Shown one piece after another: positions 12,824 through 47,939 of a DNA stretch of 49,857 nucleotides. Location: the sequence record OQ680139.1; one strand, 5' to 3'. The notes beneath the pieces were generated by a model, which saw only the letters and a list, made by a program, of their open reading frames with translations, was not told the DNA's origin and did not search any database. This DNA comes from Escherichia phage PH1062. The stretch's first letter is position 1. The number at the start of each line of letters is the position of its first letter. The position numbers and the translations under genes were made by a program.

Positions 12824-12842
12824 AATAGCACTTTTTGTTAAG
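12824..12842 (+). promoter_or_regulatory. Copy of the 19 bp family element in reverse orientation relative to the capsid gene
   Basis: AATAGCACTTTTTGTTAAG on the plus strand, ~55-70 nt upstream of the minus-strand capsid start. Confidence 0.45.
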
Positions 12843-16784: not shown

Positions 16785-16797
16785 ATTATACATGAGT

Positions 16798-17346
16798 TTA
16801 GCAATTCTCGCTATCCTTGCCGTGGTTTGTGTGATACCCAAGCTCATGCTCCGCGCTCTTCCTTGCGCAAACCGCATCAAACCAGTCATTATACCTGCCA
16901 AGATTTTTGTTCTTTCCGTCATCACCCATTATGCAAGCCATCCACATTTCATCGCGAGAATACCATGTAACACCTACGCAACCGCTTTTATTCCTTTTTG
17001 ATATTGAAAGGTTTCTGTTGTTTCCTCTATAGCTTTTAAGTTCAAGGTTTTCTATCCTATCATCATCTCTTACGTGGTTTATATGATCAATAACAAACCC
17101 TTTTGGAACGCTGGCTGCATTATTGTGAATACACCACACAATATGTGATCGTGGTATTTTCTTTTCAATACCTCCAATTGTAATCCACACATACCAGTAT
17201 CCGTTTGATTTATCTAGGTATCCAGCAGTATTGCCAACCATCCTATTAAACGCGTGATATGCACTCCTTTTACTAAAATCACTTTCTGGCCTTCCATTCC
17301 AGAAAACCTCTCCGCTTTTGTATGTAAAAATATCGCTGAATCTCAC
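16798..17346 (-). CDS. HNH homing endonuclease with AP2-type DNA-binding domain
   Basis: IDHINHVRDDDRIENLEL then NKSGCVGVTWYSRDEMWMACI; paralogous to 20784..21302 and 40529..41077. Confidence 0.75.
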   Translation of the reverse strand: MRFSDIFTYKSGEVFWNGRPESDFSKRSAYHAFNRMVGNTAGYLDKSNGYWYVWITIGGIEKKIPRSHIVWCIHNNAASVPKGFVIDHINHVRDDDRIENLELKSYRGNNRNLSISKRNKSGCVGVTWYSRDEMWMACIMGDDGKNKNLGRYNDWFDAVCARKSAEHELGYHTNHGKDSENC

Positions 17347-21865: not shown

Positions 21866-21895
21866 TTCTGCTTCCTCGTTCGTTTCGATGGGGTA

Positions 21896-21940
21896 ACTAT
21901 ACCGCTACCCCGATTCTGAGTTTTAACAAAAAGTGCTATC
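21896..21940 (-). promoter_or_regulatory. Family promoter A: 20 bp element, 19 bp spacer, TATAGT
   Basis: Sense strand AATAGCACTTTTTGTTAAAA; -10 sits in the loop of inverted repeat GGGGTA/TACCCC; followed by CCCATCGAAACGAA. Confidence 0.55.
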
Positions 21941-22117
21941 GCCGGTGATTTCGTGCATTCTTTTTCAACACCAACCATATTTTAAAACTGAAGATTTCAG
22001 GTTTGGTGAATCGTCGCTTCCCGTACTGTCGGCAAAGGCGGCGAACTCGTCGCTTATCCATCCGAAGGTCAGTAATTATCTTTTCTGATTTGATTAGCTT
22101 CATGACTAGTCCCCTTC

Positions 22118-22264
22118 GTTTTCGTCAAACTGTTGATTGTTGATCTGTTTAATTACTTCCCTCATAACTTCTGGCCGATCTAACTGGCCGTATCGAATTT
22201 TCTTTATAGAAATCGCCTCTTTAAGCTCTGCTGCTTGCTTGTCTGACAGGTTGATAGTAATCAT
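22118..22264 (-). CDS. Small hypothetical protein (48 aa; below ORF-track cutoff)
   Basis: My translation MITINLSDKQAAELKEAISIKK...; GAGAGGAAAGCAGAATG RBS-start ~30 nt after promoter B -10. Confidence 0.4.
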
Positions 22265-22293
22265 TCTGCTTTCCTCTCGCTTGGTGTGAACTA

Positions 22294-22339
22294 ACTATAA
22301 CAAAACCCGCCGGAGCGGGTTTAGCAATTCGTGCTATTT
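22294..22339 (-). promoter_or_regulatory. Family promoter B: element, hairpin spacer, TATAGT
   Basis: AAATAGCACGAATTGCTAAA; spacer holds CCCGC-tccg-GCGGG plus TTTT; element overlaps the TAA stop of 22338..22955. Confidence 0.55.
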
Positions 22340-22955
22340 ACCAAGGAATATCATCGGCCCATTCGTCGATTGCTGGTCGGATACCGCAGGCGCGAACCAC
22401 TGCCATGACGCCGCCGTCAATATCACCATTCACCAGATGCACGTCATGCTCGTTATATTTCTTGTAATCAGGAAAATGCGATTCCTTGATGCGTATGTAA
22501 TCACGGCTATCTCCCGCGAAGTTCTTGCCATCCATGAATAGGCGGACCAGGGTAACATCGTGACCATCTTCAACGAGTCGAATCACTTCATCGGGGAATC
22601 CGCCATCAGTGCAAACAAAACAGAATCCTTCATCACACAGACGGATATGTTCGCTCATCAGCTTACCGAACTGCTGGTTGCCAAAAAGCGGCTTTACCAC
22701 TGTTTCGCTAATCCAGATCATGAACTCACGGCAGGTCTTTCCACCAAGAAAGCTCTGGGGCTGCTCTTTCTGATCGCGGTCGTCGTATGCAGTGATGAAC
22801 TTTGAGAAGGCCCTGGCCCCAAGGATGGATGCGGCAATCTCAAACATCGGACGCTTGAAGCTGGTAGGGATGCAGTTGTAATCCGCTGCGAGCGCGTTGC
22901 CGATCGTGTCTTTACCAACCGAGGCTGGACCGTTGAGAATGATAATTTTTGACAT
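22338..22955 (-). CDS. P-loop kinase, dNMP kinase / polynucleotide kinase-like
   Basis: 205 aa; N-terminal ILNGPASVGKDT Walker A with the GKDT signature. Confidence 0.5.
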   Translation of the reverse strand: MSKIIILNGPASVGKDTIGNALAADYNCIPTSFKRPMFEIAASILGARAFSKFITAYDDRDQKEQPQSFLGGKTCREFMIWISETVVKPLFGNQQFGKLMSEHIRLCDEGFCFVCTDGGFPDEVIRLVEDGHDVTLVRLFMDGKNFAGDSRDYIRIKESHFPDYKKYNEHDVHLVNGDIDGGVMAVVRACGIRPAIDEWADDIPW

Positions 22956-23075
22956 TTGTGTTAATCCTCGTTATTGTGCCGCCATGCGTATTAAGCATGA
23001 GCTTTGCGTATTTTTAGTCTACATAGTGCAGGATAATATCAACGCCCCTGCTGCTGAATTTATGTTCGTATATCG

Positions 23076-23615
23076 TCACTTATGATGCACGCCATGCGAT
23101 CCGACGCCAGCATGTAGTTTATCGCCATAGTCACACACCTGGTATGTGGTGATGCCTAGGCTTCGAAAGTGAGCGATTACGTTAGGACTGTCATCAAATG
23201 CTGCCGTAATTTGATGCAAGCCAATATACCGCAAGAACTCCTCTTTGATGATGGTATCCTTTCGGTTATCACTTGCCTGGCGCATGACCATAACGTTATA
23301 TTTTGCTCCAGCATCATGAAGCCACTGAGTAGAAATCTCACACACCTCGTCTGAACGCCCTGTTAGAATAATGATGAACGCGCCGGAGTCAAACAGGCTA
23401 TTCATTACCTGAATAGTTGACTCGATAGGCTGATCATATTCTGAAAGTCGATTGAACTCAGACCATGACTCAGTAAGGTGCAAATCCTTTGTAGGCAACT
23501 TATGCAAACGATGCGATCCGTCAGATAAAGTTCCGTCGTAATCAAACAGGTAGACTGGCTTATTGATTGCGTCTGTGTTCAAGTGGTGCTTAATCATGGC
23601 GTACATCTGATTCAT
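23076..23615 (-). CDS. HAD-superfamily phosphatase (polynucleotide 3'-phosphatase / nucleotidase-like)
   Basis: 179 aa; LFDYDGTLSDG matches HAD motif I. Confidence 0.55.
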   Translation of the reverse strand: MNQMYAMIKHHLNTDAINKPVYLFDYDGTLSDGSHRLHKLPTKDLHLTESWSEFNRLSEYDQPIESTIQVMNSLFDSGAFIIILTGRSDEVCEISTQWLHDAGAKYNVMVMRQASDNRKDTIIKEEFLRYIGLHQITAAFDDSPNVIAHFRSLGITTYQVCDYGDKLHAGVGSHGVHHK

Positions 23616-23648
23616 TGGTTAACTTCCTTTCGTGTGGTTGATGTGTGG

Positions 23649-23693
23649 ATTATACCAGTCAGGATGAATCCCCTTTTAACAAAACGTGCTATT
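23649..23693 (-). promoter_or_regulatory. Family promoter C: element, 19 bp, TGgTATAAT
   Basis: AATAGCACGTTTTGTTAAAA; extended -10; element contains the TAG stop of 23689..24432. Confidence 0.55.
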
Positions 23694-24432
23694 TAATATA
23701 GAACTGAGCCACTACTCCGTCATAAATATTTAGGGCTGCGTATGCGTCAACTAACTCGCCATTAGCATTTATTACATTACCAACTTTCAATGCTCTCCAG
23801 CGGTAATCACCTTTTAGTCCAGAGAGGAAGGCATCTTGCGTGATGTGAATGACGCTCGGTTTATGACCTGTTTCACACTCGTCTACTTCATAATCATATT
23901 CTCCACCCTTGATGAAGCCATTCCCGCCAACGTAATAGCAAACCGCCACCTTGCGATCATTCTCTGACTCGCATTCGCCTACTGACATGGTAAGCGCCTT
24001 GCCTTCACCGAAATTGCTACCGAAAGTGAACTTGGCATCTTTCGTCAGGTAATCAAACTTTGCGCCATCATCCACGATGGTCTTGCCTGGGCCAGCCGCA
24101 AGCTCATTCACGAATGCATCGACAGTGCTGTGACACGGATCGCCATTGTACTTAGGCAAATCATTGAGCAATTGCTCACATGCTTCGTGCACCAGCTTAC
24201 CTACAGTTTCTTTGATTGCCTGCTCAACATGGTCAGCGATAATCGACGGTGCAGAAATTTGATGTTTTTGAGTCGATTCTAAGGCCTTTAAGCGTGCCTG
24301 TAAGGACTCGATTTCTTTTTTATGCATTGCGTAGGATACCCATGCTCCATCGTCGCAGGATTGCATTCCGACGCCGTGAATATTGACGCTGGTTGGCACT
24401 GACACAGGGATATAACGGTTGATGCTGTTCAT
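23689..24432 (-). CDS. Hypothetical protein
   Basis: 247 aa; no motif recognised. Confidence 0.6.
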   Translation of the reverse strand: MNSINRYIPVSVPTSVNIHGVGMQSCDDGAWVSYAMHKKEIESLQARLKALESTQKHQISAPSIIADHVEQAIKETVGKLVHEACEQLLNDLPKYNGDPCHSTVDAFVNELAAGPGKTIVDDGAKFDYLTKDAKFTFGSNFGEGKALTMSVGECESENDRKVAVCYYVGGNGFIKGGEYDYEVDECETGHKPSVIHITQDAFLSGLKGDYRWRALKVGNVINANGELVDAYAALNIYDGVVAQFYIK

Positions 24433-24473
24433 ATGTGATTCCTCAGTTGGTTTGTGTTCACTTGACAGGAGAC

Positions 24474-24518
24474 ACTATAGCTAATGTCTCCGAGCAAGTT
24501 TTAACAAAAAGTGCTATT
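24474..24518 (-). promoter_or_regulatory. Family promoter D: element, 19 bp, TATAGT
   Basis: AATAGCACTTTTTGTTAAAA; -10 in loop of GGAGACA/TGTCTCC; element encodes the last codons NSTFC and stop of 24501..24731. Confidence 0.55.
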
Positions 24519-24731
24519 CGATGAATCCGGCGCGAATTGCAGTTTCAAGTGTGCATACTGCTTAGCCGTCAGTGATGAGTGATAGGTAAAGATGCCAGCC
24601 TGGATACCCTTTACCAACTGATCCTGCGTAATGCCTGAGATATTAATAATCCCGTGTCCGCCACCAGTACGCAGGACCACATCGCCGACCGCACAAAATT
24701 CAATGCCTTTGCTGTTAGTGTAGACTTGCAT
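24501..24731 (-). CDS. Hypothetical protein
   Basis: 76 aa; good RBS AAGGGG. Confidence 0.5.
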   Translation of the reverse strand: MQVYTNSKGIEFCAVGDVVLRTGGGHGIINISGITQDQLVKGIQAGIFTYHSSLTAKQYAHLKLQFAPDSSNSTFC

Positions 24732-24918
24732 TTTTTAACCCCTTAACCTGACATGCTGTTCCTGTTCGGATGGCTGTTACTAAAAGAGTGAACACTGTAG
24801 CCTGGCTTATAGCCTTAAGCCATCGACCATGTTTTGGGTAGTAGACGTATCCAGTTCCACACGATACGGCGTACCATAAGCTACCTCGTCTGAAAACTAT
24901 TGGCTTCAACGGAATCAT
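24715..24918 (-). CDS. Hypothetical protein
   Basis: 67 aa ORF overlapping both neighbours at start/stop. Confidence 0.3.
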   Translation of the reverse strand: MIPLKPIVFRRGSLWYAVSCGTGYVYYPKHGRWLKAISQATVFTLLVTAIRTGTACQVKGLKNASLH

Positions 24919-25304
24919 AAGTAACCCTTCCCTACAGTTTCTCCAACTTCACGTGATGCCTTTAACTTGTTCCAGAAATCGAACGGGCCGACTGGCTCCC
25001 ATGCTTTCGGTTTGCCTGGCTCATTCCACCAACCGAGAACTGCCGCACTGCCGTAGCATGAATCCATCTGGCGACCGTCGCTGAAATAGCTTTTGAATAC
25101 GCGATTCAGTTCATCACCGCCAACCTTGATTGAGTTAGCTTGAGACTCAATTCCATATTTCTTCTCTAACTCCGTAGGCTCATCAATGAACCCCTCCACA
25201 ACGATCGGGTAAGAACCAGGATCGCGTGGGTTAGTCTCTTTCGGATGGAGCTTGAAGTATTCAAGCTCGGCATAGATGCTAGGGTTAAGTAAACGTACTT
25301 TCAT
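24915..25304 (-). CDS. Hypothetical protein
   Basis: 129 aa; ~43 nt after promoter E -10. Confidence 0.6.
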   Translation of the reverse strand: MKVRLLNPSIYAELEYFKLHPKETNPRDPGSYPIVVEGFIDEPTELEKKYGIESQANSIKVGGDELNRVFKSYFSDGRQMDSCYGSAAVLGWWNEPGKPKAWEPVGPFDFWNKLKASREVGETVGKGYL

Positions 25305-25347
25305 TTGTTAATCCTCTGTGATTGGTTATCTCTGCTTCAATAAGTCC

Positions 25348-25393
25348 ACTATATCAAATGGACTTGCGGAAGGTTTAGCAATTCGTGCTATTT
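25348..25393 (-). promoter_or_regulatory. Family promoter E: element, 20 bp, TATAGT
   Basis: AAATAGCACGAATTGCTAAA; -10 in loop of AAGTCCA/TGGACTT. Confidence 0.55.
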
Positions 25394-25482
25394 AACCACT
25401 ATCAGAAAGATAATCACCAGGAACAGAAGCACCCAGGATAACCCGACAAAAAGCAATTGCAGCACGTCAACTAATTTGAACT

Positions 25483-25701
25483 TCATAGCACTTCAACCTC
25501 ATCCTCTACAAAGGGCCAGTCGCCTGGTGCCATTCCTTTCTTGCTGAGCGCCGGAAGGAAGTCAGCGCCAACCATGTACATCGGACCCTCATCATCTTCT
25601 TCATATTTCCAGGCCATCGCCACTACTGGCAGCTTGCTTTTATCAACGCCCTGATACGGAGACTTGATAATGCGAATCTTAATCATTTCTTCATTGTTCA
25701 T
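25483..25701 (-). CDS. Hypothetical protein (start moved to internal Met with RBS)
   Basis: ORF track 25483..25800 overlaps the upstream paralog; Met at MNNEEMIKIRI has a GGAG RBS. Confidence 0.4.
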   Translation of the reverse strand: MNNEEMIKIRIIKSPYQGVDKSKLPVVAMAWKYEEDDEGPMYMVGADFLPALSKKGMAPGDWPFVEDEVEVL

Positions 25702-25897
25702 TGTGGCGCTCCATGTAGTCAGCCATTTTGATAAGGTGCTCACCCATTGCTCGGACAGTAGCCGGATCTTGCATTGGGAATGCTCCAGAGTCGTCGTCAA
25801 TAACGATTTCGACAGTGACGTTATCGCTATTGGTCATCGTGTCAATCCAGCAATCGTCATCGTCCATATCCTGGAAGCGCTTGCGATCGGTAATCAT
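25691..25897 (-). CDS. Small acidic protein, paralog family member 5 (most divergent)
   Basis: 68 aa; C-terminal PATVRAMGEHLIKMADYMERH aligns with the family motif. Confidence 0.5.
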   Translation of the reverse strand: MITDRKRFQDMDDDDCWIDTMTNSDNVTVEIVIDDDSGAFPMQDPATVRAMGEHLIKMADYMERHNEQ

Positions 25898-26118
25898 AAA
25901 ACCCCCTTCTCAGCGCGGTGGGCCGCTTCCATCAGGTGACACGCCAGTTGGCGCGCCTGGTCTGGCGTGTACAGCATGTAAGTGCTTGGGTATGATTCTT
26001 CGTGAGGATTGAAGTCAAGGCGCACCTTGAAAGTCACACGATCATTGCTGTGAATCTTCACAGCCTCAATTTCGGCCTGCTCGTTGTAGTCGTCTGCAAT
26101 GCGCACTTTAGTGCTCAT
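25894..26118 (-). CDS. Small acidic protein, paralog family member 4
   Basis: 74 aa; VRLDFNPHEESYPSTYMLYTPDQARQLACHLMEAAHRAE. Confidence 0.6.
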   Translation of the reverse strand: MSTKVRIADDYNEQAEIEAVKIHSNDRVTFKVRLDFNPHEESYPSTYMLYTPDQARQLACHLMEAAHRAEKGVL

Positions 26119-26157
26119 AAATTACCCCTTAGTTGATTGTTTCACTTCAATGAGTGC

Positions 26158-26202
26158 ACTATAGCAAATGCACTCACGGCAGTTTTAACAAAAAGTGCTA
26201 TT
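26158..26202 (-). promoter_or_regulatory. Family promoter F: element, 19 bp, TATAGT
   Basis: AATAGCACTTTTTGTTAAAA; -10 in loop of TGAGTGCA/TGCACTCA; element contains the TAG stop of 26198..26398. Confidence 0.55.
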
Positions 26203-26398
26203 CTATCACCTTCACTACCTTCTCTTTGCGATACGGTGCGCCGGACTTATGCAGCCAGTAGCGGGCCTGGGTAAGAGTACCCATTTTCTCAACCGTTACC
26301 CACCAGAACCAGGCGACTCGCTTCTGCACGGCGAACCATATGACCGGATCGCTGAAAGCTGTCTCGGTCCTGATCATCACTATGCGATACTTCTTCAT
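26198..26398 (-). CDS. Hypothetical protein
   Basis: 66 aa Trp-rich ORF, start/stop-coupled to neighbours. Confidence 0.4.
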   Translation of the reverse strand: MKKYRIVMIRTETAFSDPVIWFAVQKRVAWFWWVTVEKMGTLTQARYWLHKSGAPYRKEKVVKVIE

Positions 26399-26601
26399 GC
26401 CTGGTCTCTCCCTAGCTGGTTGTTGGCCTTGTTGGCTGCTGACACCAGTGCCGCCGCCATTGCCAGTGCCTGATCTGGAGTTAGAAATACCATCTCATCG
26501 CTAGCCAGGATTTCAACTTGGTCACTCTCCGCGCCTACCTCAAAGTAATCAGCGTAAAGGCATTTTACAAACACTGGAAAATTGATGTTTTTGTTGCTCA
26601 T
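26395..26601 (-). CDS. Small acidic protein, paralog family member 3
   Basis: 68 aa; VEILASDEMVFLTPDQALAMAAALVSAANKA. Confidence 0.55.
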   Translation of the reverse strand: MSNKNINFPVFVKCLYADYFEVGAESDQVEILASDEMVFLTPDQALAMAAALVSAANKANNQLGRDQA

Positions 26602-26708
26602 ATATCACCTCTAAATGGGCCTGTAACGGCCCGTTATTTTACTTACCCAATCGCCCATGCGACTTGAGATTATGTCGGTAGAGCTGCATTACGTGCTCAT
26701 TATGGTGA

Positions 26709-26930
26709 CTACTCATCTGATTCTGCCTCCACTTCCTCAGCCGCCAGGATTAGCGCCGCCGCCAGCTCGCGAGCCTGCTCAGCTGTGTAGGCCATTGCAG
26801 TTCCACCACCATAACGAGAATCTGGTGAAAGGTCCAGGTGAACACGCTTACGCATCTTGCCGAATGGAATCTTAATCACGGATACTTCAGTTTCCTTATC
26901 CCAAGATGAATTGACTCGAATATCTTTCAT
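26709..26930 (-). CDS. Small acidic protein, paralog family member 2
   Basis: 73 aa; VHLDLSPDSRYGGGTAMAYTAEQARELAAALILAAEEVE. Confidence 0.6.
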   Translation of the reverse strand: MKDIRVNSSWDKETEVSVIKIPFGKMRKRVHLDLSPDSRYGGGTAMAYTAEQARELAAALILAAEEVEAESDE

Positions 26931-27139
26931 TGCTTTTCCGCCTCGTCCGCTGCCAGGATTAATGCTGCCGCTAATTTTCTAGCCGCGTCAGGTGAGTATT
27001 GCATCAGTGTCTGGCAATCTCCGTATTCGTCAGGATTGAAGTCTAGGTTAACAACATGCCCGCGAACGGTTCCCATCGTGACGCTGACCTCTGCTTGGTC
27101 AAAGTGAACATCGTCAATACGTACAGCTTCCATAATCAT
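26927..27139 (-). CDS. Small acidic protein, paralog family member 1 (start moved to internal Met)
   Basis: VNLDFNPDEYGDCQTLMQYSPDAARKLAAALILAADEAE; track start 27187 lies inside promoter G, so Met at MIMEAV with AAGAGG RBS is more likely. Confidence 0.55.
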   Translation of the reverse strand: MIMEAVRIDDVHFDQAEVSVTMGTVRGHVVNLDFNPDEYGDCQTLMQYSPDAARKLAAALILAADEAEKQ

Positions 27140-27163
27140 TTCCTCTTTGTTGTCGATATGGTA

Positions 27164-27208
27164 ATCATAGCTGACTACCCCACCCATTGTTTAACAATTC
27201 GTGCTATT
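27164..27208 (-). promoter_or_regulatory. Family promoter G: element, 20 bp, TATGAT
   Basis: AATAGCACGAATTGTTAAA variant. Confidence 0.5.
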
Positions 27209-27398
27209 TGATTCGTCTCATATGCTGCGTTCGGTGTTTTTCCAGATAATCACACCGAGCTTTGGCTATAGAAAAATCACTATACGAACTATCAGTTGAT
27301 GAATGAGTTATGCCAGAAATCATAACTTGAAAAACTCCCTTTAATTGCATCACCCAAAAATCACCATTTTCATATGCTATGTTTGATTTTTTTAACAT
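27204..27398 (-). CDS. Hypothetical protein (start moved to internal Met)
   Basis: Track start (GTG 27458) lies inside promoter H; Met at MLKKSNIAYENGDFW is downstream of the -10. Confidence 0.4.
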   Translation of the reverse strand: MLKKSNIAYENGDFWVMQLKGVFQVMISGITHSSTDSSYSDFSIAKARCDYLEKHRTQHMRRIK

Positions 27399-27435
27399 TT
27401 TATCCACCAATCCAATTCTTGTTTTCGATGTTGTA

Positions 27436-27481
27436 ATTATACCGATTCCTTGCGGCACTGGTTTAGCAATTCGTGCTATTG
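27436..27481 (-). promoter_or_regulatory. Family promoter H: element, 20 bp, TATAAT
   Basis: AATAGCACGAATTGCTAAA; element encodes NSTNC and stop of 27463..27690. Confidence 0.55.
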
Positions 27482-27690
27482 CGAACGATTTCGAATTTAG
27501 CCATTATGACGCCAAGGCTTTTTATCATAAGAGCTTCACCTATCGTCTTCACTATGTACTCATTGCCATCAACCTTGATGTAGTATGAGCCATTAAAGCG
27601 AGTGATTGGCTTAGCCTTGTATATCCCACCATTCACGACTGAAAGGTTGTGGTGATTGGCTTGCCTTACATACACACATTTTATAAGCAT
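27463..27690 (-). CDS. Hypothetical protein
   Basis: 75 aa ending ...NSTNC. Confidence 0.5.
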   Translation of the reverse strand: MLIKCVYVRQANHHNLSVVNGGIYKAKPITRFNGSYYIKVDGNEYIVKTIGEALMIKSLGVIMAKFEIVRNSTNC

Positions 27691-28256
27691 TAATGCTCAC
27701 CATTCAGGAGAGATTTCGCTTTCCGGTAGAACTGGATGGCCTTCTCCACCTCATCGGCATCATAGCCATGAATCATGTCTGAGCTTGCCTGCAATTTGCT
27801 ATGAGATTTGCGCTCAACCGATCTCCATGAGTCGCACCACTTGTGAATGTCTCTCCCATACATGCCCACCAGGTATGGGTGTGCATATATCTTGTCACCA
27901 ATAAGGCAAATGATTCCAGCGTCCTGTAGTGATGGTAGGATGTTGTCAATCAGGTTATTCATTACTCCATTACGCTCGACGAACGGCTGGACCTTTCTGA
28001 TCGCCTCATATGTTGAGCGAACTCCCACAACGCCTTTTCCATTTATCGCTTGCTTCCAGATATTTTCAACCACGACGCATTGTTCACGATTTAGGTTTGC
28101 GCGACGCATAACTTCTACTTCGCACCAGTACTTTTGTGACTGTCGGTATCCGTTAGCATTGATTGCAATTCGTAGTGGTGGAAGCCCATCTTCCGTAGCA
28201 ATCTTCATAATCTGCTCATCTGTCAGCTTCTCTTCGTTAAAATCAAACATCCCCAT
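27690..28256 (-). CDS. Short paralog of the 30528..32111 NTPase (shares its N- and C-terminal domains, lacks the P-loop core)
   Basis: N-terminus MGMFDFNEEKLTDEQIMKIATEDGLPPLRIAINANGYRQSQ and segment INGKGVVGVRSTYEAIRKVQPF...LIGDKIYAHPYLVG match both ends of the 527 aa protein. Confidence 0.6.
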   Translation of the reverse strand: MGMFDFNEEKLTDEQIMKIATEDGLPPLRIAINANGYRQSQKYWCEVEVMRRANLNREQCVVVENIWKQAINGKGVVGVRSTYEAIRKVQPFVERNGVMNNLIDNILPSLQDAGIICLIGDKIYAHPYLVGMYGRDIHKWCDSWRSVERKSHSKLQASSDMIHGYDADEVEKAIQFYRKAKSLLNGEH

Positions 28257-28777
28257 TATTTCGTCTCCCTAATCATTTCCTGGTACATTTTGATTGCCTT
28301 GATGGCTCCTGTAATCTCATCGCCTTCAAACTCAGTCACGGATGGCATCAGCTTGAGTATTTTGACCTTAAAGTCGCTCACGGCCTTCTCTGCAATCTGG
28401 CCGTTTGCCTTCACTCGCTTTCCTGTCTGGATTGCGCCATCAACCAAAGACAGATAAGCACAACGAACCTCTACGTCATCACCGAAATCACCATCCTTAA
28501 TTGAAAGTTTTGCACGAACGTTTGCCGCCTGTATCTCTGGCATCCTGGCTACCGTATTGGCGACATATGACGCCTTCAGCTTTGACATGCTGTATCTGCC
28601 ACCTACATCCAGATCCTCACGACTTATGCCTCCCATATCACTAGATGTGAGGCCGTAAACCTGGCGAGCTATTAGATGGATTGGGACGTGGTAGCTGCGG
28701 TTCTCGGACTTGAGCGCTTGCTCCGCCATGTAGCGGACGACATCGCCCAGGCTTACGTGTTGATTATGATTTGACAT
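28256..28777 (-). CDS. Hypothetical protein, first gene of the leftward operon
   Basis: 173 aa; first ORF downstream of the sigma70-like promoter at 28820-28848. Confidence 0.6.
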   Translation of the reverse strand: MSNHNQHVSLGDVVRYMAEQALKSENRSYHVPIHLIARQVYGLTSSDMGGISREDLDVGGRYSMSKLKASYVANTVARMPEIQAANVRAKLSIKDGDFGDDVEVRCAYLSLVDGAIQTGKRVKANGQIAEKAVSDFKVKILKLMPSVTEFEGDEITGAIKAIKMYQEMIRETK

Positions 28778-28819
28778 AGATATTACTCCTGATTGGTGGT
28801 CTTCGTTAAGATGGGTGCA

Positions 28820-28848
28820 ATACTACCAGTGTGGTTACATGTTATCAA
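28820..28848 (-). promoter_or_regulatory. Sigma70-like early promoter TTGATA-17-TAGTAT (leftward)
   Basis: Hexamers at 17 bp spacing ~45 nt upstream of 28777; spacer carries GTGGTTACATGT, also found at 47464-47475. Confidence 0.5.
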
Positions 28849-29068
28849 GTGTTATTGATGCAAGTGTTCGACTTAGTTACGTTTTGCGACCTCTCGCCCC
28901 AGATATAGCTCAATGTAAAGTCTGCGTATAGTTTGTAGATAAGTATTTTTAGCAAATGGGCCCCTACATGACCTTTTATTCCTACAATGTCGTCATATTC
29001 CTACAGGTGTAGGAAAATATCATAGAAAACTATCGCAATATCACATATCCACTATCTACATTATCTAC

Positions 29069-29145
29069 ATATATATATATTAATAATAATAATATAGATA
29101 AATGGTTATTATATAAGGATATTTTAATGTAACCATGGCGTAATT
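29069..29145. repeat. AT-rich conserved block, copy 1
   Basis: (AT)n, AATAATAATAA, GATATTTTAATGTAAC and GCGTAA in the same order as at 47687-47757. Confidence 0.7.
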
Positions 29146-29410
29146 CAGCGTGATATGCGTACATGATTCCTACGGAGTGCTGGTGTGTCTACATGGCATA
29201 ACATGCATAACGCGTATGCGCTAGAAACGTGTGGCGGGAAAGTCCTACCAGGAGATCAAGGGATCAGATCTCACCCCATCATTCCCCCCATCAATGAATC
29301 ATTGCTCAATTCGCAACAATCGAAAACATCATTGCAAACGATGCAATATTGCTATATGTGCAATAGTGAAGTGAATTATTGCAATAGCTGCAACAATCCA
29401 TAAATCGAAC

Positions 29411-29456
29411 GAATAGCACTTTTTGCTAAAGACATAAATCATCATTCTGGTAATAT
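29411..29456 (+). promoter_or_regulatory. Family promoter I (rightward): element, 20 bp, TAATAT
   Basis: GAATAGCACTTTTTGCTAAA on the plus strand; first rightward-oriented copy after the AT-rich region. Confidence 0.5.
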
Positions 29457-29642
29457 GTATCTCAAGGAAGCAGTGAAGCGAACGCCAAGTAGCTACTTCC
29501 CAGAAGTCGAATCGTCCAGATGAAAAATGCTGGCGAGTGTTGAGAAAGGGCACGTTGAGTCACTTCCGAACAGGTAAACTCCTAGACACCTTCTCCGGCA
29601 GCAAAGTCTGACCGGGTTCTTCGAAAAAGCAGTGAAGGTATT

Positions 29643-29688
29643 GAATAGCACGAAATGTTAAAACAGAAGTGAAGAAAGCAGGTATAGT
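29643..29688 (+). promoter_or_regulatory. Family promoter I2 (rightward): element, 20 bp, TATAGT
   Basis: GAATAGCACGAAATGTTAAAA; 126 nt upstream of 29815. Confidence 0.5.
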
Positions 29689-29814
29689 CAGTACATAGAG
29701 AACGGGGTGGGAAGTAAAGAGCCGAACGGCCTCCTGATGGAACAGGATAACCACTAAAGCAGAGATGACATCAAAGCGAACCTCTAGCAAAGCACAGTAA
29801 ACCATTGACGAGAG

Positions 29815-30039
29815 ATGAAAATGAACCAGGATCTTAATAAAATTGCTTTCAACAATACCATCGCTGACATTGCTGCCAAGGTAGATCTATCCCGCAATCC
29901 CGTTAAGCAGATCGCTTCTGAGTGTGAGTTCTTCGCATCGCAGATTGAAGGTGACGAATACAAGAGAGTGTTTGCAGCCCTAAGTAAATGCAAAACACGC
30001 AAAGCAATGAGTATAATCATCAATAGCACGAATTGCTAA
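29815..30039 (+). CDS. Hypothetical protein
   Basis: 74 aa ending ...NSTNC, the last five codons being the family element. Confidence 0.5.
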   Translation: MKMNQDLNKIAFNNTIADIAAKVDLSRNPVKQIASECEFFASQIEGDEYKRVFAALSKCKTRKAMSIIINSTNC

Positions 30040-30066
30040 AGCCCTTCGGGGCTTTTCCTGTATATT
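30022..30066 (+). promoter_or_regulatory. Family promoter J (rightward): element, terminator-like hairpin spacer, TATATT
   Basis: AATAGCACGAATTGCTAAA; spacer GCCC-ttcg-GGGC plus TTTT; followed by CATCCCATCGAAACGAA; 36 nt to ATG 30103. Confidence 0.55.
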
Positions 30067-30102
30067 CATCCCATCGAAACGAAACACAAAAAGGCAAACA
30101 AA

Positions 30103-30527: not shown

Positions 30528-32111
30528 ATGTTTGATTTCAACGAAGATAAATTGTCAATCGATCAGGTCATGGCTGTAGCCGCTGCCGATAACCTGCCAC
30601 CTCTACGCGTAGCAATCAACGCGAACGGGTACAGGCAAAGCCAGTCATTCTGGAAAGCCCCAACAGAGATTGACTCAGGCGGTGACAAATATCCGGTAAT
30701 TTCACTTGGTAACGATTATGATGTCGTTGGTAAACTGTCAAGCAATGCCGCTCGTTCTGTTCAGTTCCCCGAGTCGTCCGCTTACATGCATTTCCTCGGA
30801 TGCATATCAGCCGCCATGCTGGGCCGATTTACGGTTGAGTATCACGGAACACAACAGCCTACCGCGCTGTACGTCGTAACCAGTCAGCCGCCATCGACGG
30901 GTAAATCAGCCATTAACTCACTTTCGCTGGCCCCGATGATCGCAGAGACTGAGCGACTCAACGAGATCAGAAAGCGTGACCGCAAGAAGATTATGGCTAA
31001 GCTCTCCGCTCTATCCAAGGAGATGAAGCAGGAGAAATCACCATCTGATATGGCGGCTCTGTTTGAGGAGAAAGAGGAGCTTGAAGAAAAACTTGAACGA
31101 CTCTGTGACATCGTTTTCCCCGTATCCGACACCACGCCGGAAGGTCTTGCGCGAATCAACAACCGCCAGGGAAACTTTGCAGTGATCTCGGATGAAGCAA
31201 CGAGCGTGAACTCACTGTTAGGCATGACCTATGGTGACGGCTCAAAGAAAACGAACAGCGAGCTTGTGCTTAAGGCGTGGGATGCTGGTAACGTATCTAT
31301 CGCCCGTGCGAACGCAGACAATAACATGAGCTTCATTGCGATGGGCTGCATATCTGTAATTGCACAGGATGAAACAATCAACGCGATCATGAATGCTGGT
31401 GCGCGTGGTATCGGTGTGTCAGAACGTTTCTTGCTTGTGCGTGAGAAGTCATTCCTTGGCGAGCGTGTATTCGTTGACGAAAAAGGAGAATCAACATACG
31501 AGCCTATTGATGGCGGACTCAAGGCGGACTACTTCCGTCTGGTCCATGAGATCATGAGCGAACACGAAGTCAACCTGACAGTAAGCACGTCGGCGATGAA
31601 ATATCTCAACCGTGCGCGTCAGGATATGGAACCTCACCTTGCGGACGGCGGGAAGTATTCACACACAATGCTTCGCGGCGCGCTGGGTAAGTTCGATAAG
31701 CAGGCTATCAGGATCGCGGCTGTTCTTCACACTGTGCGTAACTGGTTTAATCCCAATGGCGGGAGTCCGCAGAAGTCCAGAGAGATTGAGCTTGACACAA
31801 TGCAGGAAGCGGTAATTATGTTCCAGGAACTGAGTAAGACTTATCTGTCATCTGCAAACGCTGCTGGTCATGCTGGCGACCATGCGGAGATGAATAAGCT
31901 GATCGATATTCTGATCAAGCAAGGTAAGAACGGGAAAGGCGTTGTAGGTGTACGATCCCTATATGAAGCGGCTCGCAAGGTTAAACCCTTTGAAGGGCAA
32001 AGTGGTGTAATGACTCGCATCAAAGATCACCTGATCCCTATGCTTGATGAGAAGAACTACACGTGCCTGATTGGTGATAAAATTTACATTAATCCGCGAC
32101 TGCTGGGGTAA
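30528..32111 (+). CDS. P-loop NTPase of unknown function (putative replication-associated ATPase)
   Basis: 527 aa; Walker A QPPSTGKSA, Walker B-like FAVISDEA; termini shared with 27690..28256. Confidence 0.55.
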   Translation: MFDFNEDKLSIDQVMAVAAADNLPPLRVAINANGYRQSQSFWKAPTEIDSGGDKYPVISLGNDYDVVGKLSSNAARSVQFPESSAYMHFLGCISAAMLGRFTVEYHGTQQPTALYVVTSQPPSTGKSAINSLSLAPMIAETERLNEIRKRDRKKIMAKLSALSKEMKQEKSPSDMAALFEEKEELEEKLERLCDIVFPVSDTTPEGLARINNRQGNFAVISDEATSVNSLLGMTYGDGSKKTNSELVLKAWDAGNVSIARANADNNMSFIAMGCISVIAQDETINAIMNAGARGIGVSERFLLVREKSFLGERVFVDEKGESTYEPIDGGLKADYFRLVHEIMSEHEVNLTVSTSAMKYLNRARQDMEPHLADGGKYSHTMLRGALGKFDKQAIRIAAVLHTVRNWFNPNGGSPQKSREIELDTMQEAVIMFQELSKTYLSSANAAGHAGDHAEMNKLIDILIKQGKNGKGVVGVRSLYEAARKVKPFEGQSGVMTRIKDHLIPMLDEKNYTCLIGDKIYINPRLLG

Positions 32112-34021: not shown

Positions 34022-34048
34022 GATTGAATCCTCTTTGAGTGAGATATG

Positions 34049-34094
34049 AATATAGCGCCTTCCGGCGCTATAGTGTTAGGCAATTCGTGCTATC
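34049..34094 (-). promoter_or_regulatory. Family promoter K: element variant, 21 bp hairpin spacer, TATATT
   Basis: GATAGCACGAATTGCCTAA; spacer is inverted repeat TATAGCGCC-ggaa-GGCGCTATA; element overlaps the TGA stop of 34093..35235. Confidence 0.45.
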
Positions 34095-36032: not shown

Positions 36033-36062
36033 GATGATTCCTCGTCTCGTTGGTATGAAAGA

Positions 36063-36107
36063 AGTATACCCGCGCGGCGGCGGGTATGTTTAGCAATTCG
36101 TGCTATT
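36063..36107 (-). promoter_or_regulatory. Family promoter L: element, 20 bp hairpin spacer, TATACT
   Basis: AATAGCACGAATTGCTAAA; spacer ACCCGC-cgccgc-GCGGGT; element overlaps TAA stop of 36106..36342. Confidence 0.5.
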
Positions 36108-37337: not shown

Positions 37338-37376
37338 TTTGATTTCCTTGGTTGGTTACTTCGTTTCGATGAAGTG

Positions 37377-37421
37377 ATAATACATCACCTCACCGATTCG
37401 TCTTTAGCAATTCGTGCTATT
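37377..37421 (-). promoter_or_regulatory. Family promoter M: element, 20 bp, TATTAT
   Basis: AATAGCACGAATTGCTAAA encodes NSTNC and stop of 37404..37832; followed by CTTCATCGAAACGAAGT. Confidence 0.55.
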
Positions 37422-39931: not shown

Positions 39932-39968
39932 AGTATTAAATGCCTTTCATGTTCGTTCGATTGACGTT

Positions 39969-40012
39969 ATAATAACAACCATCGAAACCAATGTTTAACA
40001 AAAAGTGCTATT
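39969..40012 (-). promoter_or_regulatory. Family promoter N: element, 18 bp, TATTAT, upstream of helicase operon
   Basis: AATAGCACTTTTTGTTAAAC; lies in the divergent region between helicase and 40024..40497. Confidence 0.5.
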
Positions 40013-42110: not shown

Positions 42111-42130
42111 TTTAGCAATTCGTGCTATTT
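42111..42130 (-). promoter_or_regulatory. Family element in reverse orientation at the tail fibre promoter (operator-like position)
   Basis: TTTAGCAATTCGTGCTATTT on the plus strand between two plus-strand genes; ends 19 nt before ATG 42149. Confidence 0.45.
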
Positions 42131-46284: not shown

Positions 46285-46321
46285 TATATATACCTTTGTT
46301 TACTTCGTTTGATTTACGGTG

Positions 46322-46365
46322 ATTATAGCAAATCACCGCATTCTTGTTTAGCAAAAAGTGCTACG
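46322..46365 (-). promoter_or_regulatory. Family promoter P: element, 19 bp, TATAAT
   Basis: CGTAGCACTTTTTGCTAAA variant; overlaps TAG stop of the exonuclease gene; followed by ATCAAACGAAGTAAAC. Confidence 0.5.
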
Positions 46366-47855: not shown

Positions 47856-47900
47856 AAAAAGCACGAATTGCTAAAACTCAATTAATGGTTGGTGTATAGT
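47856..47900 (+). promoter_or_regulatory. Family promoter Q (rightward): element, 18 bp, TATAGT
   Basis: AAAAGCACGAATTGCTAAAA; followed by CACTCAATCGAAACGAA. Confidence 0.5.
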
Positions 47901-47939
47901 CACTCAATCGAAACGAAATTCACTTGCTAAGGACTCAAA

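Follow-up and report, generated by a model that had tools for sequence, protein, structure and literature searches.

In the present study, we analysed the 49857-nucleotide (nt) stretch of DNA of Escherichia phage PH1062 (OQ680139.1; hereafter the window) and found in it about 20 copies of an asymmetric box with the consensus ATAGCACnWWTTGYTAAA, which forms the leading part of a repeated promoter cassette. In order, the cassette would consist of a 20-bp box (the above consensus followed by 'ac'), a free spacer of 18 nt, a partial TGn and the -10 element TATAnT, and then of a 6-nt discriminator, a putative transcription start at the A of a conserved leader (CATCGAAACGAA), a Shine-Dalgarno sequence and the ATG. 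We propose that this unit of about 75 bp is the standard transcription-unit boundary of the T1-like phages (Drexlerviridae) and marks most of the boundaries between their gene blocks. In sequence, the box is a consensus marbox placed in the forward class II register, and the host sigma70 RNA polymerase would be recruited to it by a host marbox-binding activator in place of a -35 contact. That about 15-20 class II marbox promoters per genome, close to the consensus, drive most early and middle transcription in the enterobacterial phages of the T1 family, which would thereby hijack MarA, SoxS or Rob (RamA in Klebsiella), is a reading that we hold to be evenly poised between right and wrong. The explanation as a whole, namely a marbox-promoter boundary cassette with a hairpin that belongs to the upstream gene and a box that also serves for crossover, is the account that we somewhat favour.

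A megablast search of positions 21896-30066 against phage records gave 429 T1-like matches (Escherichia, Shigella and Klebsiella) with mosaic coverage of at most 74%, and the nearest relatives of the window belong to the genus Nouzillyvirus of the Drexlerviridae; therefore, the 49.9-kb window is essentially an entire T1-like siphovirus genome. The finding spans a region of small leftward genes and a divergent control region, in which many open reading frames (ORFs) are ORFans with no Pfam or PHROG function. An Rfam scan of the whole window matched no family. The window was pooled with seven fetched relatives and with 120 IMG/VR loci found with the exact box, all on contigs of 39-53 kb, and this set holds 709 cassettes, of which 640 are unique. 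Their spacers were grouped into 229 families by greedy clustering, which replaced single-linkage clustering after the latter had chained 324 cassettes into one cluster. The promoter annotation in the ETEP102 record was software-predicted and uninformative.

With the pattern ATAGCACNWWTTGYTAAA and at most two mismatches, 20 matches were found in the window against 0.11 expected from shuffles, and 11 of them lie within 21896-30066. When the window copies were lined up, TATAnT stood exactly 20 nt past the box, and among the 640 unique pooled cassettes a -10-like hexamer was found at this offset in 79% and at 19-21 nt in 91%. The pooled box consensus is AAATAGCACGAATTGCTAAAAC, two common variants being CGAATTGCT and CTTTTTGTT, and the pooled cassette consensus reads AAATAGCACGAATTGCTAAAAC-N8-Gg..aT.tGGTATAATtaCC.CATCgAAAc.AAa. 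Every copy of the box has the orientation of its downstream ORF, with 42-69 nt from the box end to the start codon and 60-87 nt from the box start to the ATG. In addition, the leader CATCGAAACGAA, which was absent from an earlier description of the cassette made from the letters of this region (the sequence-only reading), is conserved 6 nt past each -10, for example at 21879-21890 on the minus strand and at 30072-30083 on the plus strand, and 173 of its 220 unique pooled sites have a box upstream. From the position of the -10 and the CA motif, transcription is predicted to start at the A of this leader. In most cassettes the leader starts exactly at this predicted position; it may signal the start site or the initially transcribed region, stabilise the 5' end or be a site of its processing, or offer additional homology for recombination.

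At 17-bp spacing from the -10 the hexamer is AAAACn, and no usable -35 is present at 16-18 bp. We ruled out TTGYTA as a -35 hexamer because its distance from the -10 is an invariant 22 bp. A two-hexamer sigma70 scan of 21-31 kb gave 19 sites, with 19.1 expected, and did not pick up the cassettes. The logo of the copies contains a partial extended -10, with G-14 in 67% and T-15 in 42%. A palindrome TAGCA-N5-TGCTA was also considered as a dimer site and rejected, as it is broken by the variant CTTTTTGTT, while both variants keep the asymmetric marbox.

Judging from their consensus, the boxes of the window are members of a direct repeat already published for the Drexlerviridae. When phage TLS was re-annotated in 2024, 21 sites of a 21-nt direct repeat (aaATAGCACnnnTTGnTAAAA) were described, directed along transcription and about 76 nt upstream of start codons, and the repeat was noted also in T1, Rtp and Rogue1; apart from the repeats, the authors reported no more than three sigma70-like promoters, and they suggested stoperators, enhancer-binding sites or UP elements as the role of the repeats (PMC11447400). 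This repeat is like the window box in consensus, orientation, number (about 20 copies per genome) and distance to start codons. What we add to it is a -10 at a fixed distance, the agreement with the marbox, hairpins that covary, the supply of stop codons and the box-to-box recombination. Within the searchable library, queries on the marbox in phages or in Drexlerviridae, and on the sequence of the box, brought up no earlier link.

For MarA, SoxS and Rob, the marbox consensus is AYNGCACNNWNNRYYAAAYN (PMC2064960), which is also given as gcannwwntgnnaaa (PMC12052159), with GCAC as the A site and CAAA as the B site (PMC9638938, PMC9178005). In class II promoters, of which micF is an example, the marbox is in forward orientation and overlaps the -35 (PMC9638938, PMC12052159). 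Rob contacts G-47 and A-45 of micF in the cryo-electron microscopy complex. The phage box agrees with AYNGCACNNWNNRYYAAAYN at every specified position save 19 and varies at degenerate positions only, and the two variants CGAATTGCT and CTTTTTGTT likewise differ at degenerate marbox positions only. A logo that was anchored on the leader, and is independent of the box, reads A-50 T A G-47 C A-45 C n W W T T G Y T A A A-33; its conservation is low exactly where the marbox is degenerate and highest at GCAC and YAAA. In E. coli K-12, a gap of 18 bp separates the micF marbox, ACAGCACTGAATGTCAAAAC, from the -10, which the G of GCAC precedes by 35 nt; the phage box, also forward, has the same register at both distances. 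Class II marboxes are centred near -41, and an 18-19 bp rule for the distance from marbox to -10 is said to go back to Martin et al. in 1999. The phage consensus ATAGCACGAATTGCTAAAAC is identical to the micF marbox at 14/20 positions, with all differences at degenerate ones, and the mar marbox ATGCCACGTTTTGCTAAATC shares 17/20 positions with the phage variant ATAGCACGTTTTGCTAAAAC. Furthermore, the first 18 positions of the literature consensus have 16 exact sites in the window against 0.075 expected. The same consensus has 13 exact sites in the Klebsiella Webervirus mtp2, whose cassettes share the spacing and the hairpins, and similar cassettes were found in 326 phage records, 227 of them from Klebsiella.

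On every sequence-level point the cassettes look like micF-type class II promoters: a 20-bp asymmetric forward marbox overlaps the -35 and lies 18 bp from the -10, its GCAC has the G at -47, and a functional -35 hexamer is lacking. Unlike typical chromosomal marbox sites, the phage box is present about 20 times in a 50-kb genome and is much nearer to the consensus, and unlike micF, it forms one unit with a conserved leader and with the stop codon and hairpin of the preceding gene. A host activator is suggested by this match and register together with the lack of a phage-encoded candidate: a hidden Markov model of MarA/SoxS/Rob run on the six-frame ORFs of the window found no homologue (best E 0.018, for a 74-aa ORF), and Pfam and PHROGs scans of the window proteins revealed no recognisable DNA-binding protein of AraC, helix-turn-helix or other type. 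Since Rob is constitutively abundant, we consider it the likeliest activator; MarA or SoxS may add to it under stress, and RamA in Klebsiella.

The same searches bear on the idea that the box is recognised by a phage-encoded factor, such as a MotA-like activator, a sigma-appropriation partner or another early protein, its likeness to the marbox being convergent or coincidental. For such a factor there is room among the ORFans of the region; it could be made first from the box-less, TG-extended sigma70-like promoter at the head of the leftward operon (28848-28820), and the TLS authors wrote of an 'unidentified enhancer-binding sequence' (PMC11447400). We nevertheless regard it as unlikely, as neither the model search nor the domain scans found it; the first leftward protein (DUF7174) gave a structural model with pLDDT 79.5 and no PDB fold match below E = 0.08, and the agreement of the box with the host marbox in sequence, degeneracy, orientation and exact micF register is hard to reach by chance. 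It also seems quite unlikely that the cassettes are factor-independent extended -10 promoters that use no activator, the box being an UP-like element for the C-terminal domain of the alpha subunit or a module for recombination or stop codons. The TGn ahead of the -10 in many copies, the UP-element-like function suggested for TLS (PMC11447400) and the stops that the box gives in two frames would fit this idea. An UP element is an A/T-rich tract at -40 to -60 with no G/C-specific core, whereas the box has an invariant core GCAC...TTG.TAAA and no such tract, with GCAC at -47 to -44 and G at -38 among its most conserved positions; its conservation peaks at the A site GCAC and the B site YAAA and is relaxed at the N, W and Y positions of the marbox. 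Stop supply, for its part, constrains only positions 2-4 and 15-17 of the box and not its 20-nt distance to the -10.

The individual cassettes of the window are given below. RNA folds were computed on the 46 nt downstream of the box, with folding free energy (dG) in kcal/mol and z-scores against dinucleotide shuffles.

Cassette A, 21889..21939, minus strand: box 21922-21939, -10 TATAGT 21896-21901, predicted start at A 21889; stem GGGGTAGC 21904-21911 with GTTACCCC 21890-21897 (core GGGGTA/TACCCC), dG -14.9, z -3.3; the upstream 55-aa ORF ends at the box TAG.

Cassette B, 22287..22337, minus strand: box 22320-22337, -10 TATAGT 22294-22299; hairpin AACCCGC/GCGGGTT 22304-22321 followed by a T-run, scored as terminator-like; the upstream 205-aa dNMP-kinase-like ORF ends just ahead of the box.

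Cassette C, 23642..23692, minus strand: box 23675-23692, -10 TATAAT 23649-23654; weakened stem GGATT/AATCC, for which relatives have GGGGATT/AATCCCC and the compensatory GGGCATT/AATGCCC.

Cassette D, 24467..24517, minus strand: box 24500-24517, -10 TATAGT 24474-24479; stem GGAGACATTA 24482-24491 with TAGTGTCTCC 24468-24477 (core GGAGACA/TGTCTCC), dG -19.4, z -4.8; the upstream 76-aa ORF 24501-24731 (...NSTFC) is ended by the box TAA.

Cassette E, 25341..25391, minus strand: box 25374-25391, -10 TATAGT 25348-25353, a chimeric cassette; stem AAGTCCATT 25357-25365 with AGTGGACTT 25342-25350 (core AAGTCCA/TGGACTT), dG -13.9, z -4.7.

Cassette F, 26144..26201, minus strand: box 26184-26201, -10 TATAGT 26158-26163; core stem TGAGTGCA/TGCACTCA within an extended helix of 26167-26183 with 26144-26160, dG -17.8, z -5.1.

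Cassette G, 27155..27207, minus strand: box 27190-27207, -10 TATGAT 27164-27169; stem GGTA/TACC (GGGTA/TACCC in relatives).

Cassette H, 27429..27479, minus strand: box 27462-27479, -10 TATAAT 27436-27441; weak stem only; the upstream 75-aa ORF 27463-27690 (...NSTNC) is ended by the box TAA.

Cassette I, 29413..29463, plus strand: box 29413-29430, -10 TAATAT 29451-29456; no upstream gene, z -0.05.

Second rightward cassette, 29645..29695, plus strand: box 29645-29662 (one mismatch), -10 TATAGT 29683-29688; no upstream gene and no hairpin, z +0.24.

Cassette J, 30023..30073, plus strand: box 30023-30040, -10 TATATT 30061-30066; hairpin AAGCCC/GGGCTT 30039-30054 with a T-run; the upstream 74-aa ORF 29815-30039 (...NSTNC) is ended by the box TAA.

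Cassette 34093, 34042..34093, minus strand: box 34076-34093 (two mismatches), -10 at 34049-34054; hairpin TATAGCGCC/GGCGCTATA 34051-34072, which overlaps the -10, z -5.6.

Cassette 36106, 36056..36106, minus strand: box 36089-36106, -10 TATACT 36063-36068; hairpin ATACCCGC/GCGGGTAT 36066-36087, which abuts the -10, with a compensatory ACCAGC/GCTGGT in ETEP102.

Cassette 37420, 37366..37420, minus strand: box 37403-37420, the TAA of which ends a 142-aa ORF (...NSTNC); helix of 14 bp, 37383-37396 with 37366-37379, which encloses the -10 TATTAT, dG -19.2, z -6.0.

Cassette 40011, 39962..40011, minus strand: box 39994-40011, upstream of the helicase region; no co-oriented upstream gene, and only a weak palindrome at the -10.

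Cassette 46364, 46315..46364, minus strand: box 46347-46364 (one mismatch), -10 TATAAT; stem TGCGGTGATT/AATCACCGTA, 46331-46340 with 46315-46324, around the -10, z -4.9.

Cassette 47858, 47858..47909, plus strand: box 47858-47875 (one mismatch), -10 TATAGT 47895-47900; weak stem.

Degenerate box copy, 12825..12842, plus strand: no -10 at the canonical spacing.

Degenerate box copy, 16797..16814, minus strand: two mismatches; its TAA ends a 182-aa ORF (...DSENC), and TATAAT lies just 6 nt past the box, followed by a hairpin and a T-run.

Box copy without a canonical -10, 42111..42128, minus strand: followed by a terminator-like hairpin, an arrangement that is kept in relatives.

The last three copies have no canonically spaced -10, and each adjoins a terminator-like hairpin; they may be decayed cassettes or have another use. 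In relatives, the arrangement at 42128 consists of the box, then GTGCAGTATAGCATT... and then an A-run hairpin.

The second part of the cassette is its hairpin. The sequence-only reading had proposed for A, D, E and F an inverted repeat that holds the -10 in its loop and whose stem differs between copies and stays complementary. All four stems exist as it described them (dG -13.9 to -19.4 kcal/mol, z -3.3 to -5.1), and the GC hairpin with a T-run that it placed in the spacer of B and J was seen in both by scan and by folding. In homologous cassettes of relatives, the stems are kept through compensatory change. As a control, chimeras were built from the spacer (5' half) of one cassette family and the post -10 segment (3' half) of another, which preserves positional composition, including the recurrent GGGG...CCCC. 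Perfect complementarity of at least 7 bp between the spacer and the post -10 segment was found in 35/229 families against 2.9 in chimeras, and of at least 8 bp in 20/229 against 0.6; hairpins of at least 6 bp within the spacer were found in 39 families against 5.0. These findings indicate that the complementarity of the hairpin arms is selected.

The covariation was most fully followed in an alignment of 35 sequences of the D/E/F superfamily, in which 89% of the cells are paired and both sides vary in 7/12 pairs. There were 66 compensatory cells in it against 20.6 after shuffling (0/500 shuffles reached 66), and the covariation score was 0.465 against 0.167 for shuffled and 0.05-0.13 for slid partners. 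The stems of the E family are AAGGCCA/TGGCCTT, AAGTCCA/TGGACTT (that of the window), AAGCCCA/TGGGCTT, AAGGGCA/TGCCCTT and GAGGACA/TGTCCTC. Among the other compensatory families, GGGGTA/TACCCC is replaced by GGGATA/TATCCC and GGGGTT/AACCCC, and the 37420 family has the 5' arms GAGGTGG, GAAGTGG and GAGTTGG with the matching 3' arm in each. Column covariation at a fixed register over all families gave a marginal signal, with a top z of 4.5 where the 95th percentile of the null was 4.1, because the stems occupy different registers.

The geometry of the hairpins is variable. In 74 of the 229 families the 5' arm is part of the spacer, while the 3' arm lies within the -10 or past it; in 63 the hairpin is wholly inside the spacer, 27 have another arrangement and 65 have no clear hairpin. 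The placing of the -10 in the loop, or in the 3' arm, holds for only these 74 families. We take this placing to be a consequence of packing, because box, -10 and leader are all constrained and leave only the spacer and the 6-nt discriminator free. A hairpin built in this way from spacer and discriminator nucleotides is carried by at least half of the families.

The hairpins appear to behave as RNA elements of the sense strand that belong to the upstream gene. In otherwise perfect repeats with a single internal mismatch, G·T was found 13 times and A·C once (p = 0.002), and among the variation events in interior helices, 12 of which were compensatory, there were 23 of G·T against 7 of A·C (p = 0.005). 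A first count over all pairs of the minimum free energy (MFE) folds gave a weaker 58 against 39; it included spurious outer pairs and was replaced by these refined counts. Such a strand asymmetry points to sense-strand RNA, since a structure in duplex DNA or a protein-bound palindrome would be symmetric. The mean MFE was -11.9 for the sense strand, -10.6 for the antisense strand and -6.5 for shuffled sequence. Furthermore, the median MFE was -13.2 where a co-oriented ORF of at least 40 aa ends at the box and -6.1 where none does (p = 8e-11), the latter being the shuffle level, and the rightward cassettes at 29413 and 29645 of the divergent region have a box and a -10 and no hairpin (z -0.05 and +0.24). 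Because the predicted start of the cassette lies within or beyond the 3' arm, only transcripts that read through from upstream contain the hairpin. In such RNA it would act as a 3' element (3' untranslated region) of the upstream gene, as an intrinsic terminator where a T-run is present (B and J) and as an attenuator or a 3'-end protector against exonucleases where it is not. B and J resemble intrinsic terminators in their GC stem, 4-nt loop and T-run, which lie between the box and the -10. Unlike these, most hairpins have no U-tract, and many run straight into the -10 or the leader ATCGAAACGAA; a T-run follows the hairpin in only 4/229 families and is lacking in A, D, E and F.

These counts also speak to the view that the inverted repeats act in DNA, either as a cruciform or hairpin that presents or hides the -10, as at the early promoters of phage N4, or as targets of a protein or nuclease that stimulate recombination. 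The -10 is in the loop or the 3' arm in about a third of the families, and supercoiling could extrude stems of 6-10 bp. Against this view stand the excess of G·T over A·C, the greater stability of the sense folds, a geometry that is not fixed relative to the -10 and the absence of hairpins from cassettes that have a box and a -10 and no upstream gene; we hold it to be improbable, and an RNA element of the upstream gene is preferred.

The connection with the upstream gene is seen also in its stop codon, which the sequence-only reading had proposed is often supplied by the 5' end of the element. The box contains TAG at its positions 2-4 and TAA at positions 15-17, so that two of the three frames are closed, which preserves upstream ORFs when an exchange takes place there. 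Within the window, the preceding ORF ends at the box TAA (offset +14) at 24517 (NSTFC), at 27479, 30023 and 37420 (NSTNC) and at the degenerate copy 16814 (DSENC); at the box TAG (offset +1) at 21939, 23692, 25391, 26201, 27207 and 46364; and directly before the box at 22337, 34093 and 36106. The four proteins that end in NST[NF]C, which had been noticed as unrelated, have indeed only this tail in common. Among the relatives, 403/505 cassettes abut a co-oriented ORF of at least 40 aa, with the stop at offset +1 in 224, +14 in 55, -3 in 53 and -2 in 37, and about 70% of the ORF-abutting cassettes use a stop supplied by the box. The genes are tightly packed, the preceding one ending within or against the box. 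Although the sites are asymmetric, directed along transcription and located at gene ends, and the TLS authors raised the idea of 'stoperator'-like sites at which a bound protein blocks polymerase coming from upstream (PMC11447400), this is very improbable, as the strict 20-nt spacing to the -10, the conserved start region and the downstream Shine-Dalgarno sequence and ATG define promoters, and no repressor candidate was seen among the proteins scanned. A marbox-bound activator could still act incidentally as a roadblock.

The boxes are used as crossover points in recombination, and exchange is not confined to them. Among relatives, whole cassettes have been gained or lost, and the distances between cassettes vary (767-1169 bp from G to F and 1318-1819 bp from C to B). 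Three explicit chimeric cassettes were found that have their junction within the box. In cassette E of the window, the upstream gene end and the box variant are those of cassette 7978 of P817 (33/40), while spacer, -10 and leader are those of cassette E of P817 (51/60), and relative to P817 the window is without a 257-bp module of promoter plus ORF at this place. Cassette C of TH21 joins the upstream flank of D (31/40) to the core of C (59/60), and cassette G of P817 joins the upstream flank of H' (35/40) to the core of G (59/60). A fourth proposed chimera (G of TH21 against H of the window) was rejected, its upstream identity being only 13/40. The repeated boxes would in this way allow promoter-plus-ORF modules to be deleted or inserted by box-to-box recombination. 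Endpoints of BLAST blocks fell in cassettes in 61/281 cases, often exactly at box edges, against 9.9 for random positions; this null is too lenient and is confounded by gene boundaries. Counts of upstream and downstream family adjacency were not used, since too many partners come out as 'unrelated' when clustering is ungapped and paralogous cassettes are present.

The sequence-only reading had compared the cassettes with the promoter-early stem-loop cassettes (PeSLs) of T4-type phages, which are proposed to mediate modular gene shuffling. On shuffling, the gene content between cassettes does vary among relatives, and the three indels with a junction in the box support it, while the enrichment of breakpoints over other gene junctions, given below, is only modest. 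The likeness to PeSLs holds for the architecture: both are a repeated intergenic promoter plus stem-loop with the upstream stop inside (PMC2839356, PMC4122927), both lie among small ORFans, and in both the stem-loop varies in position, being frequently placed ahead of the -10 and behind the upstream box, with GGGG...CCCC as a frequent stem. Recombination between PeSL copies leads to indels or replacements of ORFans and to mini-circles, and the three box-to-box chimeras would be a counterpart of these indels. The likeness does not extend to the promoter type or the lineage. PeSL promoters have a sigma70 -35/-10 consensus with an AT-rich upstream part, whereas the cassettes have no -35 and, instead, a marbox with the invariant GCAC; PeSL stem-loops have been shown to terminate, while few carry T-runs here; and PeSLs belong to hyperplastic regions of T4-type myoviruses, while the cassettes occur in an unrelated siphovirus family with no sequence homology. 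The cassettes are therefore an analogue of the PeSLs and not a member of them. The covarying hairpins and the box-to-box indels show, independently of the marbox reading, that modular boundaries of PeSL style evolved convergently in an unrelated phage family.

Several points weigh against the account given here. Binding and activation by Rob, MarA or SoxS at the boxes are predicted from sequence features, 60% of the copies have A at marbox position 19, where Y is specified, as does micF, and the partial TGn of many copies might let them fire without an activator. The promoter without a box at 28848-28820 precedes the first leftward genes and could express a phage protein that binds the box. 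As regards the hairpins, with 21 events, mismatches of other kinds occur in helices as often as G·T does, and with a T-run in only 4/229 hairpin families, termination may not be the role of most of them. Breakpoints numbered 2.67 relatives per cassette junction against 1.61 for other gene junctions (p = 0.03), and this excess is not evident within 21-31 kb. In addition, the cassettes are phylogenetically non-independent and most of the related loci were retrieved with a single exact box variant, and for this reason the p-values are optimistic.

Among coliphages and Klebsiella phages the T1-like group is one of the most frequent, and therapy collections make wide use of it. If true, the marbox reading would account for the near absence of sigma70-type promoters and solve the transcription puzzle left by the TLS re-annotation, and it would add an example of a virulent phage that uses a host activator and not its own polymerase or sigma factor. 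Phage gene expression would then be coupled to bile, oxidative or antibiotic stress signals, each replicating phage genome would be a high-affinity sink for MarA, SoxS and Rob, and the multidrug-resistance regulon of the host would be tied directly to phage development. TolC, the receptor of TLS-type members of the family, is induced by MarA, SoxS and Rob via a marbox; the level of the receptor and phage transcription would thus be co-regulated if the phage promoters use these activators. Such a link would bear on phage-antibiotic combinations, on bile and gut conditions and on receptor-independent resistance. The short, strong and insulated cassettes of about 75 bp, with promoter, stop and RNA hairpin, would be of interest in synthetic biology as well.

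Some further observations were made around the control region. About 1 kb between the leftward and rightward operons (28780-29830) has no convincing ORF and holds an AT-rich palindromic core at 29053-29115, ATTCCTACA repeats at 28968-29018 and TTGCAAT-type repeats at 29295-29403; it may be an origin or a control region. The rightward box promoters at 29413 and 29645 are followed by about 350 and 120 nt, respectively, of untranslated sequence before the first ORF at 29815, and copies of A(A/G)GCAGTGAAG lie downstream of these promoters at 29465, 29624 and 29661. The stretches within 29457-29815 could be leader RNAs or small RNAs. The sigma70-like promoter at 28820-28848 on the minus strand (TTGATA-17-TAGTAT with TG, and no box) lies directly upstream of the DUF7174 gene (28256-28777) and is the only start there that is clearly independent of the box. 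A strong hairpin, GGGCC-N-GGCCC at 26614-26635, was found between two small leftward ORFs in a gap that holds no cassette; it scores as terminator-like on the plus (antisense) strand. Finally, a 188-aa protein (27690-28256) shares a domain with the C-terminal part of a 527-aa DUF3987 helicase-like protein (30528-32111), as seen from reciprocal phrog_7327 and phrog_2373 matches; this points to a partial gene duplication, its two copies flanking the control region.

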